DNA from: Escherichia phage UPWr_E4
Length of the DNA: 64,000 nucleotides
Sequence record: PP418987.1
Strand: one strand, 5' to 3'
Shown: positions 32,246 through 44,975 of the stretch, piece by piece
Layout: each line of letters begins with the position of its first letter
Position numbering within the stretch: position 1 is the first letter of the stretch
Notes under the pieces: generated by a model
What the model saw: the letters and a program-made list of their open reading frames with translations, nothing else
Told to the model about the DNA's origin: nothing
Databases searched by the model: none
Position numbers and translations under genes: made by a program

Positions 32246-32514
32246 TGTTTGTTGTTCACACTATTTATGAAAATGAAGGTAATACTACACGTGATTACGG
32301 TCACGTAAATCAATTTTTTAGATGCAATCCAGAATTCCGAGCTCAAAAAGACGAACGAATTTTTAAAAAATGTGTAGAGCAAGGTTTCATTTACGTCAAG
32401 CACTGGATGCAAGGAAATAAAGTTAGAACCACGTACCACAGGTCTTTGACTGAGCTTAATGATGAATTGATTTATAATAGAGCTGTAAACCAAACTCTAA
32501 AGGATGAACAATGA
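32245..32514 (+). CDS. small protein (30.1-like), function unknown
   Basis: 89 aa ORF. Confidence 0.5.
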   Translation: MFVVHTIYENEGNTTRDYGHVNQFFRCNPEFRAQKDERIFKKCVEQGFIYVKHWMQGNKVRTTYHRSLTELNDELIYNRAVNQTLKDEQ

Positions 32515-33974
32515 TTCTTAAAATTCTGAACGAAATAGCATCTATTGGTTCAACTAAGCAGAAGCAAGCAATTCTTGAAAAGAATAAAGATAATGAATTG
32601 CTTAAACGAGTATATCGTCTGACTTATTCTCGTGGGTTACAGTATTATATCAAGAAATGGCCTAAACCTGGTATTGCTACCCAGAGTTTTGGAATGCTGA
32701 CTATTACCGATATGCTTGACTTCATTGAATTCACGTTAGCTACTCGGAAATTGACTGGAAATGCGGCAATTGAGGAATTAACTGGATATATTACTGACGG
32801 TAAAAAAGATGATGTTGAAGTTTTGCGTCGGGTGATGATGCGAGACCTTGAATGCGGTGCTTCAGTATCTATTGCAAACAAAGTTTGGCCAGGTTTAATT
32901 CCTGAACAACCTCAAATGCTTGCAAGTTCTTATGATGAAAAAGGCATTAATAAGAATATCAAATTTCCAGCCTTTGCCCAGTTAAAAGCTGATGGAGCTC
33001 GGTGTTTTGCTGAAGTTAGAGGTGATGAATTAGATGATGTTCGTCTTTTATCACGAGCTGGTAATGAATATCTAGGATTAGATCTTCTTAAGGAAGAGTT
33101 AATCAAAATGACTGCAGAAGCTCGCCAGATTCATCCAGAAGGTGTGTTAATTGATGGCGAATTGGTATACCATGAGCAAGTTGAAAAGGAGCCAGAAGGC
33201 CTAGATTTTCTTTTTGATGCTTATCCTGAAATTAGTAAAGCTAAAGAATTCGCCGAAGTAGCTGAATCACGTACTGCATCTAATGGCATCGCCAATAAAT
33301 CTTTAAAGGGAACCATTTCTGAAAAAGAAGCTCAATGCATGAAGTTTCAGGTCTGGGATTATGTCCCGTTGGTAGAAATATACGGTCTTCCTGCATTTCG
33401 TTTGAAATATGATGTACGTTTTTCTAAACTAGAACAAATGACATCAGGCTATGATAAAGTAATTTTAATTGAAAACCAGGTAGTAAATAACCTAGACGAA
33501 GCCAAGGTAATTTATAAAAAGTATATTGACCAAGGTCTTGAAGGTATTATTCTCAAAAATATCGATGGATTATGGGAAAATGCTCGTTCAAAAAATCTCT
33601 ATAAATTTAAAGAAGTAATTGATGTTGATTTAAAAATTGTAGGAATTTATCCTCACCGTAAAGACCCTACTAAAGCAGGTGGATTTATTCTTGAGTCAGA
33701 GTGTGGAAAAATTAAAGTAAATGCTGGTTCAGGCTTAAAAGATAAAGCCGGTGTAAAATCGCATGAACTTGACCGTACTCGCATTATGGAAAACCAAAAT
33801 TATTATATTGGAAAAATTCTAGAGTGCGAATGCAACGGTTGGTTAAAATCTGATGGCCGCACTGATTACGTTAAATTATTTCTTCCGATTGCGATTCGTT
33901 TGCGTGAAGATAAAACTAAAGCTAATACATTCGAGGATGTATTTGGTGATTTTCATGAGGTAACTGGTTTATGA
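32511..33974 (+). CDS. 30: ATP-dependent DNA ligase
   Basis: 487 aa; adenylation motif KADGAR; recognised as T4 DNA ligase. Confidence 0.95.
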   Translation: MILKILNEIASIGSTKQKQAILEKNKDNELLKRVYRLTYSRGLQYYIKKWPKPGIATQSFGMLTITDMLDFIEFTLATRKLTGNAAIEELTGYITDGKKDDVEVLRRVMMRDLECGASVSIANKVWPGLIPEQPQMLASSYDEKGINKNIKFPAFAQLKADGARCFAEVRGDELDDVRLLSRAGNEYLGLDLLKEELIKMTAEARQIHPEGVLIDGELVYHEQVEKEPEGLDFLFDAYPEISKAKEFAEVAESRTASNGIANKSLKGTISEKEAQCMKFQVWDYVPLVEIYGLPAFRLKYDVRFSKLEQMTSGYDKVILIENQVVNNLDEAKVIYKKYIDQGLEGIILKNIDGLWENARSKNLYKFKEVIDVDLKIVGIYPHRKDPTKAGGFILESECGKIKVNAGSGLKDKAGVKSHELDRTRIMENQNYYIGKILECECNGWLKSDGRTDYVKLFLPIAIRLREDKTKANTFEDVFGDFHEVTGL

Positions 33975-34159
33975 AAGCTTACTTAGAAACAATTGTCATT
34001 GCTCAAAAAGAAGGTGGAGATGTTTCTACTTCTGTATCACAAGTCATTCTCGAATTTGTAGATGCATACGCTTATAATAAATTCACAGAAACATTTGATG
34101 CCTATGAAAAAGGTCCAAAGTTTGAAATATACCGTACTCTCTTACCACTAGATTATTAA
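33971..34159 (+). CDS. small protein, function unknown
   Basis: 62 aa ORF overlapping the ligase stop; followed by an aaaggcc-ttcg-ggccttt hairpin. Confidence 0.45.
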   Translation: MKAYLETIVIAQKEGGDVSTSVSQVILEFVDAYAYNKFTETFDAYEKGPKFEIYRTLLPLDY

Positions 34160-34180
34160 AGGCCTTCGGGCCTTTAATTT

Positions 34181-34188
34181 TATAAATA
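34181..34188 (+). promoter_or_regulatory. late promoter (TATAAATA) upstream of alt
   Basis: Exact TATAAATA about 20 nt upstream of the alt ATG, downstream of a hairpin. Confidence 0.5.
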
Positions 34189-34208
34189 GAATAAACACTA
34201 GAGAGGCT

Positions 34209-36266
34209 ATGATGGAACTTATTACAGAATTATTTGACGAAGATACTACTCTTCCGATTACAAACTTAAATCCAAAGAAGAAAATACCGCAAATTTTTTC
34301 AGTTCATGTTGATGATGCAATTGAACAACCAGGCTTTCGTTTATGTACCTATACATCTGGAGGTGATACTAATCGCGATTTAAAGATGGGCGATAAAATG
34401 ATGCATATTGTTCCTTTTACATTAACTGCTAAAGGTTCAATTGCTAAATTAAAAGGTCTTGGTCCAAGCCCAATTAATTATATCAATTCAGTTTTTACTG
34501 TTGCGATGCAAACAATGCGTCAGTATAAAATTGATGCCTGTATGCTTCGTATTCTTAAGTCTAAAACCGCTGGTCAAGCTCGACAAATTCAAGTTATTGC
34601 TGATAGACTTATCCGTAGTCGTTCAGGTGGCAGATACGTCCTTCTTAAGGAACTCTGGGATTACGATAAAAAGTATGCATATATTCTTATACATCGCAAA
34701 AATGTATCACTAGAAGACATTCCGGGAGTTCCGGAAATTAGTACTGAGCTCTTTACTAAAGTTGAATCGAAGGTCGGTGATGTTTATATCAATAAAGATA
34801 CTGGAGCTCAAGTAACTAAAAATGAGGCAATTGCAGCATCTATTGCGCAAGAAAATGATAAACGTTCTGACCAAGCTGTAATCGTTAAAGTTAAAATTTC
34901 CCGTAGAGCAATTGCGCAAAGTCAATCATTGGAATCTTCTAGATTTGAAACGCCGATGTTTCAAAAATTTGAGGCTTCAGCAGCAGAATTAAATAAACCT
35001 GCTGACGCTCCTTTAATTTCTGACGCTAATGAATTAACTGTTATTTCTACTTCAGGATTTGCATTAGAGAATGCTCTTAGTAGTGTTACAGCTGGAATGG
35101 CATTCAGAGAAGCTTCTATAATTCCTGAAGATAAAGAATCTGATGTTAATGCAGAAATAAAAAATAAAGCTTTAGAAAGATTACGAAAAGAATCTATTAC
35201 TTCAATAAAAACTTTAGAAACTATTGCTTCTATAGTTGATGATACTTTAGAAAAATATAAAGGTGCTTGGTTAGAAAGAAACATTAACAAGCATTCGCAT
35301 TTAAATCAAGATGCTGCGAATGAGTTAGTACAAAATTCTTGGAATGCAATAAAAACAAAGATTATTCGAAGAGAATTGCGTGGATATGCTCTTACCGCTG
35401 GATGGTCACTACATCCTATAGTCGAAAATAAAGATTCATCTAAATACACACCGGCACAAAAACGCGGAATTCGTGAATACGTAAGTTCAGGATATGTAGA
35501 CATAAATAACGCTCTTTTGGGATTATATAATCCAGATGAGCGTACAAGTATTTTGACAGCATCTGATATAGAAAAAGCTATTGATAATTTAGATTCTGCC
35601 TTTAAAAATGGTGAACGATTACCAAAAGGTATTACTTTGTATCGTTCACAACGAATGTTACCTTCAATATATGAAGCACTGGTAAAAAATCGAGTTTTTT
35701 ATTTTAGAAATTTTGTGTCAACATCATTATATCCAAATATTTTTGGTACCTGGATGACTGATTCATCTGTGGGTGTTTTACCAGACGAAAAGCGTTTAAG
35801 TGTTTCTATTGATAAAACTGATGAAGGACTAGTAAATTCTAGCGATAATTTAGTTGGAATTGGATGGGTTATTACTGGGGCTGATAAAGTCAATGTTGTT
35901 TTACCAGGTGGAAGTTTAGCACCTTCAAATGAAATGGAAGTCATTTTGCCACGTGGATTAATGGTCAAAGTTAATAAAATAACCGATGCATCTTACAATG
36001 ATGGAACAGTTAAAACTAACAACAAGCTTATTCAAGCTGAAGTTATGACCACAGAAGAACTCACCGAATCGGTAATTTATGACGGTGACCGTCTAATGGA
36101 AACCGGCGAAGTAGTTACAATGACAGGTGATATTGAAATAGAAGACAGAGTTGATTTTGCATCATTTGTTTCATCAAATGTTAAACAGAAAGTAGAATCA
36201 TCTCTTGGAATTATTGCGTCTTGTATAGATATTGCAAACATGCCTTACAAGTTCGTTCAAGGATAA
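34209..36266 (+). CDS. alt: Alt ADP-ribosyltransferase (head-packaged), copy A
   Basis: About 685 aa; MELITELFDEDTTLPITNLNP...; ADP-ribosyltransferase R-S-E signature (LYRSQ, FVSTSL, EVILPRG). Confidence 0.85.
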   Translation: MMELITELFDEDTTLPITNLNPKKKIPQIFSVHVDDAIEQPGFRLCTYTSGGDTNRDLKMGDKMMHIVPFTLTAKGSIAKLKGLGPSPINYINSVFTVAMQTMRQYKIDACMLRILKSKTAGQARQIQVIADRLIRSRSGGRYVLLKELWDYDKKYAYILIHRKNVSLEDIPGVPEISTELFTKVESKVGDVYINKDTGAQVTKNEAIAASIAQENDKRSDQAVIVKVKISRRAIAQSQSLESSRFETPMFQKFEASAAELNKPADAPLISDANELTVISTSGFALENALSSVTAGMAFREASIIPEDKESDVNAEIKNKALERLRKESITSIKTLETIASIVDDTLEKYKGAWLERNINKHSHLNQDAANELVQNSWNAIKTKIIRRELRGYALTAGWSLHPIVENKDSSKYTPAQKRGIREYVSSGYVDINNALLGLYNPDERTSILTASDIEKAIDNLDSAFKNGERLPKGITLYRSQRMLPSIYEALVKNRVFYFRNFVSTSLYPNIFGTWMTDSSVGVLPDEKRLSVSIDKTDEGLVNSSDNLVGIGWVITGADKVNVVLPGGSLAPSNEMEVILPRGLMVKVNKITDASYNDGTVKTNNKLIQAEVMTTEELTESVIYDGDRLMETGEVVTMTGDIEIEDRVDFASFVSSNVKQKVESSLGIIASCIDIANMPYKFVQG

Positions 36267-36269
36267 ATC

Positions 36270-38327
36270 ATGGAACTTATTACAGAATTATTTGACGGCG
36301 CTTCGGCGCCGGTTGTTAACTTAAATCCTAAGCATAAAATACCACAAATTTTTGCTATTCAAGCCGGCGAAGAAAGCGTGCTTCCTGGATTTAGATTTTG
36401 TACATACACCTCTGGTGGTGATACGAATAAAAACGTTAAGCCAGGCGATAAAATGATGCATATCGTAATGATAGGTGTTAATGAGAAACTATCATTAGTT
36501 AAGCTTAAAAACTTGGGTGGAAATCCAATTGGTGTCATTAATGCCGTTTTTGATACTGCTCTTCAAACAATGAAACAGTATAAAATCGACGCATGCCTAT
36601 TCCGCGTACTAAAAAGTAAAACAAATGGCGCAGCTCGTCAAATGCAAGTTATTGCTGACCGTTTAGTACGTACTAAAGGAGCAGGTCGATATGTTCTTTT
36701 AAAGGAAATCTGGGACTATGATAAGAAATATGCATATATTATGGTTTACCGTAAAAATGCCAATTTAGAAGACATTCCAGGTGTACCTCCTATTTCAACT
36801 GAGTTATTCACAAAAGTTGAATCAAAGGTCGGTGATGTTTATGTAGACGTTAAAACAGGAAATGCTGTTCCTAAAGCTGTCGCTGTTGCTGCTTCTATTG
36901 CTTTAGAAAATGATAAGCGCACGGACCAAGCTGTTATTCAGAAAACTAAAATCAGTCGTCGATTAGCAGCACAAGCTCAATATTCTACTGTTGATGCTTC
37001 ACTTCAGGGTGATAGCTTTGCTGCCAAGAAATATCAAGAGTTTGAATCTAAAGTTCCGGTATATAAAGCAGAAGGACCAATGAACTCTGGCGTTATCCAG
37101 ATTGGTTCAAACTTCAGCAAAGGAGCTATCGGTGGTATGAGAAGTGCTTCTCGTTTTAAATCTAGCGATTATGAACTAGAAAGCTTCCGAAATCATATTG
37201 CATTGGCCCATGCACGTTTACGTGATCCATCTATCAAGTTGCAGAGCGATATAACATATCAAGGTTCTCAAGAATATTTAAAGAATAAAGAATTCTTTGA
37301 TTATAAAACTGATAAAATTTTAAGCGATCTTGCTGACATTAATATTTCTAATAGCTTTGATGTTATTAAGAAAATTATCAATGATTTGGTTAAAGGTTCT
37401 AAAGCCACGCCAGATGAAAAGACAGCTATTATTCAATTTGTAATGAATGGCATTTATAAATTGATTAATGAATCTGCTGCCCAGGCATATGAATACGCAA
37501 GCACCGAAGTAGCTCCAAAAGGACTGACTCAGGCTGAATCTGATGTAATTGAAGATTATTGTGCAGATTCATATGTTGAAATGAACTCGTTCCTTTTGGG
37601 TAAACCAGATTCTACCCGTGAAGAATACATGGAACGAGCTATTAAGCACATCGAGACGTTAGATTCTGCCTTTGCCAAAGGATCAGTTCTTCCTCCAGGA
37701 ACTACACTTTACCGTGGGCAAGAAGTTACCTTTAAAACTTTGCGTCATAACATTGAAAATAAAATGTTCTATTTCAAGAACTTCGTATCCACATCGCTTA
37801 AACCAAATATCTTCGGTGAGCATGGTAAAAACTATATGGCTCTAGATGATTCTGGCGCAGTATTTTCTGGCGAAGGAGAAGGTTCCGTTGATACAGAAGA
37901 TTTGATGCATATGGGTAGTCATTCTACATATGCTAATGAAGATGCTGAAACTAGCGTGGGTATGGTAATTAAAGGAGCTGAGCGAATCAAAGTTATCGTT
38001 CCAGGTCATTTATCAGGATTTCCATCAGAAGCTGAAGTTATTCTACCACGTGGAATTTTACTGAAGATTAATAAAGTAAGTACGTACTTTATGAAAGAAA
38101 CTGCTTATAACAAGTATCTAATCGAAGGTACAATCGTTCCTCCTTCTGAACAATTAGAAGAATCAGTATATGATGGAGACCATCTAATGGAAACTGGTGA
38201 AGTTCGTCCAATGGCTGGATTTAATCAATTCCTTGTAGAAGAATCAAAAGAAGAGGAAAATGAAGTTTCTCAAATCTTGGCTTCTTTGGTTAACATCAAC
38301 GGAATGTCTAAAAAGTTCAAAATGTAG
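36270..38327 (+). CDS. Alt-family ADP-ribosyltransferase paralog, copy B
   Basis: 685 aa; same N-terminus MELITELFD, roughly 60-65 percent identical to copy A over the first ~230 aa by eye, divergent middle, conserved R-S-E signature (LYRGQ, FVSTSL, EVILPRG). Confidence 0.8.
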   Translation: MELITELFDGASAPVVNLNPKHKIPQIFAIQAGEESVLPGFRFCTYTSGGDTNKNVKPGDKMMHIVMIGVNEKLSLVKLKNLGGNPIGVINAVFDTALQTMKQYKIDACLFRVLKSKTNGAARQMQVIADRLVRTKGAGRYVLLKEIWDYDKKYAYIMVYRKNANLEDIPGVPPISTELFTKVESKVGDVYVDVKTGNAVPKAVAVAASIALENDKRTDQAVIQKTKISRRLAAQAQYSTVDASLQGDSFAAKKYQEFESKVPVYKAEGPMNSGVIQIGSNFSKGAIGGMRSASRFKSSDYELESFRNHIALAHARLRDPSIKLQSDITYQGSQEYLKNKEFFDYKTDKILSDLADINISNSFDVIKKIINDLVKGSKATPDEKTAIIQFVMNGIYKLINESAAQAYEYASTEVAPKGLTQAESDVIEDYCADSYVEMNSFLLGKPDSTREEYMERAIKHIETLDSAFAKGSVLPPGTTLYRGQEVTFKTLRHNIENKMFYFKNFVSTSLKPNIFGEHGKNYMALDDSGAVFSGEGEGSVDTEDLMHMGSHSTYANEDAETSVGMVIKGAERIKVIVPGHLSGFPSEAEVILPRGILLKINKVSTYFMKETAYNKYLIEGTIVPPSEQLEESVYDGDHLMETGEVRPMAGFNQFLVEESKEEENEVSQILASLVNINGMSKKFKM

Positions 38328-38380
38328 TTTACAAGTCCCTCGTGTTGTGTTATAGTAGTCTTACTGACATAACATGAGGA
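38327..38380 (+). promoter_or_regulatory. 54 bp promoter/stop/RBS cassette, copy 2 (identical to 22372-22425)
   Basis: Exact 54/54 match to the cassette upstream of alc. Confidence 0.6.
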
Positions 38381-38387
38381 ACACAAA

Positions 38388-38678
38388 ATGAAATCTTCTT
38401 TGCGCTTTTTAGGTCAAGAACTTGTAGTTGAAGGAGTTATTCCTGCTGATAATGCTTTTAATGAAGCAGTTTACGATGAATTTATCAAAATTTTTGGAAC
38501 AGATAAAAAGTTCGGAATTTTTCCTTCTGAAAATTTTTCAAAGCCAGAACAGACTGAAAGTATTTTCCAAGGTGTAGTAACAGGTAAATTTGAGTCAGAA
38601 GCTCCGGTAAAAATTGAAGTTTATATTGAAGACAGTTTAGTTGCTTCAGTTTCTGCTTTCATTTCATTCCGTAAATAA
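38388..38678 (+). CDS. protein of unknown function (96 aa) expressed from the duplicated cassette
   Basis: ORF with GAGGA RBS 7 nt upstream; last plus-strand gene before the convergent gene 54. Confidence 0.55.
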   Translation: MKSSLRFLGQELVVEGVIPADNAFNEAVYDEFIKIFGTDKKFGIFPSENFSKPEQTESIFQGVVTGKFESEAPVKIEVYIEDSLVASVSAFISFRK

Positions 38679-38683
38679 AAATA

Positions 38684-38703
38684 TGGGGACCAAAAGGTCC
38701 CCA
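38684..38703. terminator. bidirectional hairpin between convergent transcription units
   Basis: tggggacc-aaaa-ggtcccca between the 96 aa ORF (+) and gene 54 (-). Confidence 0.55.
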
Positions 38704-38706
38704 TTG

Positions 38707-44963: not shown

Positions 44964-44975
44964 TATTTATAAATA
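44964..44975. promoter_or_regulatory. overlapping divergent late promoters (TATAAATA on both strands) for gene 51 (-) and genes 26/25 (+)
   Basis: tatttataaata: tatttata at 44964-44971 (minus-strand TATAAATA) and tataaata at 44968-44975 (plus strand). Confidence 0.55.

Follow-up and report, generated by a model that had tools for sequence, protein, structure and literature searches.

The 64,000-nucleotide stretch of Escherichia phage UPWr_E4 analysed here (record PP418987.1, referred to as the window) contains two head-to-tail open reading frames (ORFs) of the Alt family of ADP-ribosyltransferases on the + strand, listed by the ORF finder for the 64-kb window at 34209/34212-36266 (copy A) and 36270-38327 (copy B). 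The pair lies between gene 30/alt.1 and alt.-3/gene 54, an order that is the same in T4, RB32, T6 and JS10, with the baseplate genes 54, 48 and 29 downstream on the opposite strand. The alt region is 99.9% identical to that of Escherichia phage vB_EcoM_JB75, its near relatives being hundreds of Tequatrovirus genomes, and the window, which comes from a T4-like phage (genus Tequatrovirus), carries the alt locus in its complete state with two genes (Table 1).

The T4-type late promoter motif TATAAATA that the preliminary description of this DNA, made from the sequence alone, had placed ahead of the first copy is present at 34181-34188, where it is the sole + strand copy between 28367 and 44968 in a motif scan, and the motif also stands upstream of T4 alt. 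The gap between copies A and B is 3 nucleotides (nt) with the ribosome-binding site of copy B, AAGGA, falling within the 3′ end of copy A, and scans of the window found no second late-promoter motif and no + strand terminator-like site between A and B. The first + strand terminator-like site 3′ of the late promoter is the hairpin at 38683-38704. On the simplest reading, A and B would be carried on a single late transcript from the 34181 promoter.

Table 1. Coordinates of the two alt genes, their segments and the flanking features in the window (aa, amino acids).
Feature	Position	Strand	Remarks
Copy A, T4 alt orthologue, 684 aa + stop	34212-36266	+	in-frame ATG at 34209 also possible
A N-terminal alpha/beta domain, aa 1-238	34212-34925	+	carries gp21 motif ITE-6, E6 codon 34227-34229
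A variable all-helical middle, aa 239-420	34926-35471	+	helices predicted at high confidence
A catalytic region, aa 421-619	35472-36068	+	ends at gp21 site LTE-619 (36066-36068)
A key codons	R478 35643-35645; S503-T-S505 35718-35726; E574 and E576 35931-35939		
A C-terminal propeptide, aa 620-684	36069-36263	+	T4 counterpart cut off by prohead protease (PMC5694885)
Copy B, intact second Alt paralogue, 685 aa + stop	36270-38327	+	begins 3 nt past A stop codon
B N-terminal domain, aa 1-239	36270-36986	+	ITE-6, E6 codon 36285-36287
B variable all-helical middle, aa 240-427	36987-37550	+	
B catalytic region, aa 428-631	37551-38162	+	ends at candidate gp21 site LEE-631 (38160-38162)
B key codons	R482 37713-37715; S507-T-S509 37788-37796; F584 38019-38021; E587 and E589 38028-38036		
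B candidate C-terminal propeptide, aa 632-685	38163-38324	+	aligns with T4 Alt propeptide; cleavage inferred
Left direct repeat CTAAAAAGT, 9 bp	36609-36617	+	left end of T4 deletion
Right direct repeat CTAAAAAGT, 9 bp	38308-38316	+	right end of T4 deletion
T4-type late promoter motif TATAAATA	34181-34188	+	23 nt 5′ of copy A start codon
Gene 30, DNA ligase	32511-33974		upstream of alt pair
alt.1 homologue, 62 aa	33971-34159	+	stop codon 34157-34159
G+C-rich hairpin AAAGGCC-TTCG-GGCCTTT, then AATTTT	34158-34175	+	overlaps alt.1 stop; read from sequence
Sigma-70-like promoter TTTACA-17 nt-TATAGT with TG	38328-38356	+	10/12 matches, consensus match only; precedes alt.-3
alt.-3 homologue, 96 aa, DUF5498	38388-38678	+	PF17602, 5.4e-64; 99% identical to T4 Alt.-3; neighbour, outside the pair
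Bidirectional terminator-like hairpin	38683-38704	.	between alt.-3 and gene 54

With 98.2% amino acid identity to T4 Alt (NP_049811), copy A is the T4 Alt orthologue. Both proteins had been described as 685 amino acids long from MELITELFD, which holds for B but probably not for A. The ORF finder begins copy A at 34209 (MMELITE, 685 amino acids) and a second ATG lies at 34212 (MELITE, 684 amino acids); the latter start is favoured because it fits both the spacing from a GAGG Shine-Dalgarno sequence (34203-34206, 5 nt from the second ATG) and the annotation of T4 alt, which shares the ATGATGG and in which the annotated start is the second ATG.

BLASTP aligned copy A with copy B over 719 columns at 41% identity (E 6e-159), much more than chance would give. 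Both proteins match PF03496 (ADPrib_exo_Tox) above its curated cut-off of 23.4 bits (A 5.6e-35, B 4.9e-20) and PHROG 802, 'Alt-like RNA polymerase ADP-ribosyltransferase', the latter over residues 1-683 of A and 1-685 of B. For PF26846 (Tevenvirinae_ADPRT), precomputed matches exist for the cluster representative P0001, which is 99% identical, and for relatives, while the Pfam scan performed here reported it for neither A nor B. The similarity between the two copies is unevenly spread, with 68% identity over the N-terminal residues 1-238, 13% in the middle (A 239-420, B 240-427), 40% in the catalytic region (A 421-619) and 42% in the C-terminal tail; the values of 13% and 40% come from a three-way alignment, the pairwise alignment giving the slightly different 17% and 39%. 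The earlier claims of two tandem Alt-family genes, of a shared N-terminal part of about 230 amino acids and of substantially different middles are thus borne out.

The same is true of the R-S-E signature, the quoted motifs of which are found in both copies at the places given, as LYR478S, FVS503TS505 and E574-M-E576-VILPRG in A and as LYR482G, FVS507TS509 and E587-A-E589-VILPRG in B. The Arg, the Ser-Thr-Ser and the Glu-x-Glu stand in the expected order and spacing in both proteins, which also have the ADP-ribosyltransferase fold of the R-S-E clade. Among 1.84 billion cluster representatives 112 relatives were found, 57 of them at E ≤ 1e-30. In a family alignment of 67 sequences the sole invariant positions after Met1 were Y430, D465, R482, S507, E587, E589, R594 and G595 in the numbering of B, equivalent to Y423, D461, R478, S503, E574, E576, R581 and G582 in A. 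Among these are the catalytic Arg, the Ser that opens Ser-Thr-Ser and the two Glu of Glu-x-Glu, and the set is complete in A and B alike, such that the careful alignment proposed for detecting a loss of catalytic residues in B found none missing. In T4 the mutant 'Alt E577A' has lost ADP-ribosylation activity (PMC11404850), the residue concerned corresponding to E576 in A and E589 in B if the paper counts from the upstream ATG. B has a longer acidic insert than T4 Alt between the Ser-Thr-Ser and the Glu-x-Glu, and three residues before the first catalytic Glu it carries F584 where T4-type Alt has Pro, with Tyr or Phe at the equivalent position in 42 of the 67 family members. We take this position to sit in the substrate-recognition turn of the C3 and iota toxins.

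AlphaFold models of the two proteins were confident (mean predicted local distance difference test score 84.6 for B and 84.5 for A) and followed a shared arrangement, in which an alpha/beta N-terminal domain (N-domain) to about residue 240 and an all-helical part to about 470 are followed by the catalytic core, rich in beta structure, then by a linker modelled at low confidence and a helix at the C-terminus. Despite their 13% identity, the middles of A and B are both helical in the models. Both proteins are built on one plan, consisting of an N-domain of about 238 amino acids, a helical middle of about 180, a C3/VIP2-type ADP-ribosyltransferase domain and a tail of about 55-65. Sequence searches against solved structures gave no match for B and only a marginal match to CdtA for A.

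Copy B is intact as a 685-amino acid ORF in all eight phages in which it was translated, with an overall ratio of nonsynonymous to synonymous substitution rates (dN/dS) of 0.04, the synonymous divergence (dS) from the window ranging from 0.12 to 0.25. The N-domain is the most constrained segment (dN/dS 0.012), with values of 0.079 for the middle and 0.039 for both the catalytic region and the tail. Copy B is a working gene under strong purifying selection.

T4 had been taken to have a single alt gene at this place, and for intact genes this is right, the T4 gene being the counterpart of copy A, but T4 also holds a remnant of copy B in the form of alt.-1 (NP_049810) and alt.-2 (NP_049809), with 94.6% and 98.2% amino acid identity to B residues 1-56 and 62-116, respectively. 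The T4 DNA aligns to 36270-36617 of the window and then again from 38308 on, and since the two matching segments overlap by the 9-bp CTAAAAAGT, the loss in T4 came about by a deletion between short direct repeats, leaving T4 without the 1,699 bp of copy B that lie between the CTAAAAAGT repeats. A 1-nt deletion in the T4 stump causes a frameshift that splits it into alt.-1 and alt.-2. The T4 record describes the two as 'an old duplication of the first part of gene alt', yet these alignments show them to be what is left of a paralogue that was once full-length, and not a partial duplication of alt. Alt.-1/alt.-2 and B are the same gene in the same place downstream of alt, the T4 version being broken. 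The stump of the second gene in T4 has been on record ever since the paper on the T4 genome.

The distribution of the two states was followed with probes against GenBank phage records, from which the comparison loci were also taken because a scan of IMG/VR for relatives of B gave too few (5 loci only). A B-specific probe (36640-38300, the part of B absent from T4) matched 406 records, 401 at ≥80% coverage and all of these at ≥90% DNA identity, while a 150-nt probe over the T4 deletion junction matched 498 records, 91 of them full-length (≥80% coverage). About four in five sequenced relatives carry B and about a fifth have lost it by deletion, which corrects the preliminary description in that the presence of both genes is nothing exceptional. 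Full-length B occurs in tandem in T6 (BBF63615), RB32 (ORF194c, 'alt.-2'), RB5, RB68 and wV7 among others at 90-99.8% DNA identity, and the second alt genes of these phages and of some 400 other Tequatrovirus records are orthologues of B with no real difference from it. The 91 junction records include T4 strains as well as natural isolates, among them RB55, RB59, HY03 and ACG-C40, so that the deletion is an allele present in the wild and not a product of the laboratory. The two-gene state is the majority state in the genus and is already annotated, hence not new: the RefSeq name for both genes is 'Alt-like RNA polymerase ADP-ribosyltransferase', the RB32 record of 2006 says of B 'alt.-2 ... 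similar to alt', and alt paralogues are mentioned in T4, RB49 and 44RR (Nolan et al., 2006, PMC1524935).

The first position is occupied by alternative alleles. The copy A probe (34580-36240) matched 521 records, 174 of them full-length (≥80% coverage), and about 290 records matched over only 45% of the probe and represent a second first-position allele (697 amino acids, RB32/T6 type). The T4 type (682-684 amino acids) and the RB32 type are 100% identical over residues 1-238 and 94% in the tail but share only 36% of residues between their middles and 65% between their catalytic regions. In most B-bearing phages the first gene is the RB32-type allele, while in the window B is paired with the T4-type allele. 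Two more states with one gene arose independently. In phage sutha the end of an A-type gene is joined to the last ~38 codons of B, while ECML-134 has a single hybrid alt gene (comparison locus L017, 4133-6193) in which the first ~450 nt (codons 1 to ~150) are A-type (~98% identity) and the remainder B-type. This hybrid, found only in ECML-134 (two records) and vB_EcoM_SCS4, shows that an A-type N-terminus can combine with the B effector part and that the N-domain would be interchangeable. In Shigella phage sb3 (locus L018, 2633-4687) the first-position alt is annotated as two fragments (alt_3, alt_2) and B is intact; the fragments could reflect real decay of the first gene or a sequencing error.

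The pairing extends beyond the genus. JS10 (EU863409) has two full-length tandem Alt genes at the same locus and a tandem pair is also found in a divergent metagenomic contig, the relative of B being the second gene in both. JS10 is presumably a Dhakavirus and so of another genus than the phage studied here. Copy B is 43% identical to the JS10 second gene in the middle, 60% in the catalytic region and tail (the last 265 amino acids) and 45% in the N-domain, the corresponding values against the JS10 first gene being 22%, 36% and 44%. The RB32-type first gene matches the JS10 first gene at 69%, 83% and 46% over the same three segments, while the two genes within one phage give 17%, 39% and 68% (A with B in the window) and 17%, 42% and 66% (JS10 first with second); A with the JS10 second gene gives 19% in the middle and 43% in the catalytic part. 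Middle and catalytic parts thus group by position, which makes the two effector types old, while N-domains group by phage, with cross-phage N-domain identity of 44-46%. Synonymous divergence of A from B has reached saturation in all segments (dS 1.2-1.5), including the N-domain (dS 1.47). This rules out recent gene conversion as the source of the N-domain likeness, the 68% identity therefore reflecting constraint. Older conversion, independent duplications with import of a cassette, or co-evolution with the head are possible explanations for the grouping of N-domains by phage. The effector part of the RB32-type allele is closer to that of the JS10 first alt (69% middle, 83% catalytic) than to that of T4 Alt, which suggests cassette exchange between phage lineages, and in these comparisons, taken with the first-position alleles and the ECML-134 hybrid, the alt locus behaves like a conserved delivery module with exchangeable effector cassettes.

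Three cluster representatives of 485, 541 and 1142 amino acids (P0199, P0217 and P0226) match only the Alt N-domain, at about residues 11-167 of B (E 2e-11, 5e-6 and 3e-4), and no Pfam ADP-ribosyltransferase match was found in them, so that fusions of the Alt N-domain with modules other than ADP-ribosyltransferases may exist as well.

T4 Alt is a protein of the prohead scaffolding core, present in about 40 copies and ejected into the host (PMC9958956, PMC9026906). It is cut by gp21 at ITE-6 and LTE-619 to give a mature protein of 68.2 kDa by virion mass spectrometry (PMC5694885), and the computed mass of T4 Alt residues 7-619 is the same 68.2 kDa, thereby confirming the T4 cleavage mapping. 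Copy A has ITE-6 and LTE-619 while copy B has ITE-6 and LEE-631, which is aligned with LTE-619, the start MELITELFD being identical in both copies. E631 of B is kept in ≥90% of the family and the AlphaFold model of B is of low confidence or disordered at 628-631. The predicted mature B (residues 7-631) has 625 amino acids and a mass of 69.1 kDa. From these features and from what is established for T4 Alt, B would be expected to enter the prohead and be processed by gp21 in the same way.

B shares with T4 Alt its length, domain order, MELITELFD start, catalytic residues, both protease-site motifs, position and, presumably through co-transcription with A, late promoter, but is only 41% identical to it and has an unrelated middle (13%). 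The wider group of C3/VIP2/iota/Vis-type R-S-E toxins (PF03496) shares with Alt the fold of the catalytic domain as well as the Arg, Ser-Thr-Ser and Glu-x-Glu motifs, at identities of only 14-26%; beyond this the Alt proteins have the phage N-domain (PF26846), the large helical middle and the protease-removed termini, and are delivered via the phage head whereas the toxins are delivered via a toxin translocon. ModA and ModB belong to the same broad R-S-E clade as Alt (PMC9503650). In the pairwise comparisons that had been proposed, A (98.2%) and B (41%) both aligned with T4 Alt but BLASTP of B detected no similarity to T4 ModA (E 0.44) or ModB (E 2.2), and membership of B in the ModA/ModB family is rejected on this ground and because B has 685 amino acids and stands behind a late promoter while ModA and ModB have about 200, are products of early genes and are not packaged. 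A different parallel is offered by the internal proteins of the T-even phages, which combine a conserved delivery part with diverse effector parts differing between related phages (PMC3012670). The alt locus resembles IPI, IPII and IPIII in having a conserved N-domain and tail with a swappable middle and catalytic part, though by analogy and not by membership, as the former three are small proteins with a propeptide of 10-20 residues as their targeting signal, whereas for the Alt N-domain a targeting role is an assumption.

Taken by analogy with T4 Alt, B, an old intact paralogue of A, is probably a second head-packaged and injected arginine ADP-ribosyltransferase with targets of its own. Both genes would be transcribed late from the lone TATAAATA promoter at 34181 and both proteins incorporated into the prohead scaffolding core, where gp21 would trim them after ITE-6 and after LTE-619 (A) or LEE-631 (B). 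Both would then be ejected with the DNA into the next host cell, each mono-ADP-ribosylating arginines of host proteins using nicotinamide adenine dinucleotide (NAD+), and the unrelated middles and differing substrate-recognition loops would give A and B separate sets of targets. The head-targeting role of the N-terminal 230 amino acids, the injection of B and its different targets, as suggested in the preliminary description, are plausible. Several points weigh against this proposal. Neither the present analysis nor the literature found provides direct evidence of the expression, packaging, cleavage, injection or activity of B, and the role of the N-domain in packaging is an assumption, the known capsid-targeting sequences of T4 being short N-terminal propeptides and the role of the two propeptides of Alt being stated to be open (PMC5694885). 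The arginine specificity suggested for B by its Glu-x-Glu rests on analogy with other toxins only, and the difference in targets between A and B is suggested by divergence of their sequences alone. In addition B is dispensable in nature: 91 records have the T4 deletion, sutha has lost B independently and T4 grows well without it. The transfer of ADP-ribose from NAD+ to protein arginine has been demonstrated for T4 Alt only (PMC9503650, PMC11404850), and ADP-ribosylation of the RNA polymerase alpha subunit is the classical function of Alt and not one that can be read from the sequence of B. Literature searches for what the second Alt does, or for its presence in virions, yielded nothing other than Nolan et al. 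(2006), most subscription journals lying outside the coverage.

A broader and more tentative interpretation, which we consider possible but would not favour, is that the alt locus is a two-slot system of injected polymorphic effectors in which the N-domain and the protease-removed termini form a lineage-specific module that delivers interchangeable cassettes made up of middle and ADP-ribosyltransferase. Slot 1 would be allelic and slot 2, occupied by B, conserved and directed at another host target, possibly a component of host defence.

Redundancy of a packaged and active B with A, in which B would modify the same host proteins such as RNA polymerase alpha as an extra dose or back-up, is unlikely. 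The same catalytic residues and the arginine-type Glu-x-Glu motif are present in both copies, and natural phages exist that lack one or the other effector, the A type being kept by T4 and sutha and the B type by ECML-134; in addition, T4 Alt was reportedly found to be promiscuous in vitro by Depping et al. in 2005. Against this, the paralogues have been retained side by side at saturated dS (1.2-1.5) and the pairing recurs in JS10, while the middle of B, unrelated to that of A, is under purifying selection (dN/dS 0.079) and redundancy would not be expected to keep two distinct middles and two substrate-loop sequences. That B is active but unpackaged, acting late in the producing cell on host or phage proteins, would agree with its place behind a late promoter and with the lack of virion proteomics for B in the literature found. 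It is nonetheless improbable given that B keeps the MELITELFD/ITE-6 start, the aligned L-x-E site and the conserved tail, which are sensible only for a protein that enters the prohead, and that the N-domains of B and of the packaged Alt are 68% identical.

A mainly structural or scaffold-core role, with a vestigial or regulatory catalytic domain, is very improbable, for although constraint on B is strongest in the N-domain (dN/dS 0.012), B retains every invariant catalytic residue and its catalytic region is itself constrained (dN/dS 0.039); moreover, gpAlt is dispensable for T4 head assembly (PMC9958956) and phages without B, such as T4, assemble normally. Finally, that B is a decaying duplicate or an assembly artefact is scarcely conceivable in spite of the wreck of the T4 copy and the reading of B by the RB32 annotators as an 'apparent insertion in alt.-2', since the full-length B probe is found at ≥90% DNA identity in 401 independent records, a decaying pseudogene is ruled out by eight intact ORFs in eight phages together with the dN/dS of 0.04, and A and B are only ~65-70% identical in DNA even in the N-domain, too low for an assembler to have generated one copy from the other.

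T4 serves as the reference in studies of host take-over by phages, and Alt, ModA and ModB are usually taken as the full ADP-ribosyltransferase set. In about four in five relatives B would be a fourth member of this set, strongly conserved and bearing every sequence hallmark of a head-packaged and injected enzyme, and if the locus is indeed organised in two slots, fifty years of work on T4 will have missed the B enzyme, as T4 lacks slot 2. For T4 itself the annotation of alt.-1/alt.-2 would be corrected to the stump of a deleted full-length gene. The genes are ordinary and already named publicly; what is added here is the exact T4 deletion, the constraint on B and its catalytic integrity, the retention in B of both protease motifs and the cassette-like pattern, and the value lies in a well-defined and easily testable question and not in a new kind of system.

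Upstream of the late promoter, the hairpin at 34158-34175 is the same in T4, where it also abuts the late promoter, and it is the probable end of the upstream early/middle transcript, although it was not picked up in the scan for consensus terminators. The alt.1 homologue that it overlaps matches PF24647 ('Phage blade protein', 1.9e-29), a family added recently to Pfam. On its downstream side the alt pair is bounded by the sigma-70-like promoter at 38328-38356. In the case of the alt.-3 gene that follows, mutations extending the C-terminus of Alt.-3 allow T4 to escape the CmdTAC defence system (PMC11618068). Further downstream, two overlapping TATAAATA motifs at 44964-44975, one on the − strand (44964-44971) and one on the + strand (44968-44975), may be back-to-back late promoters.

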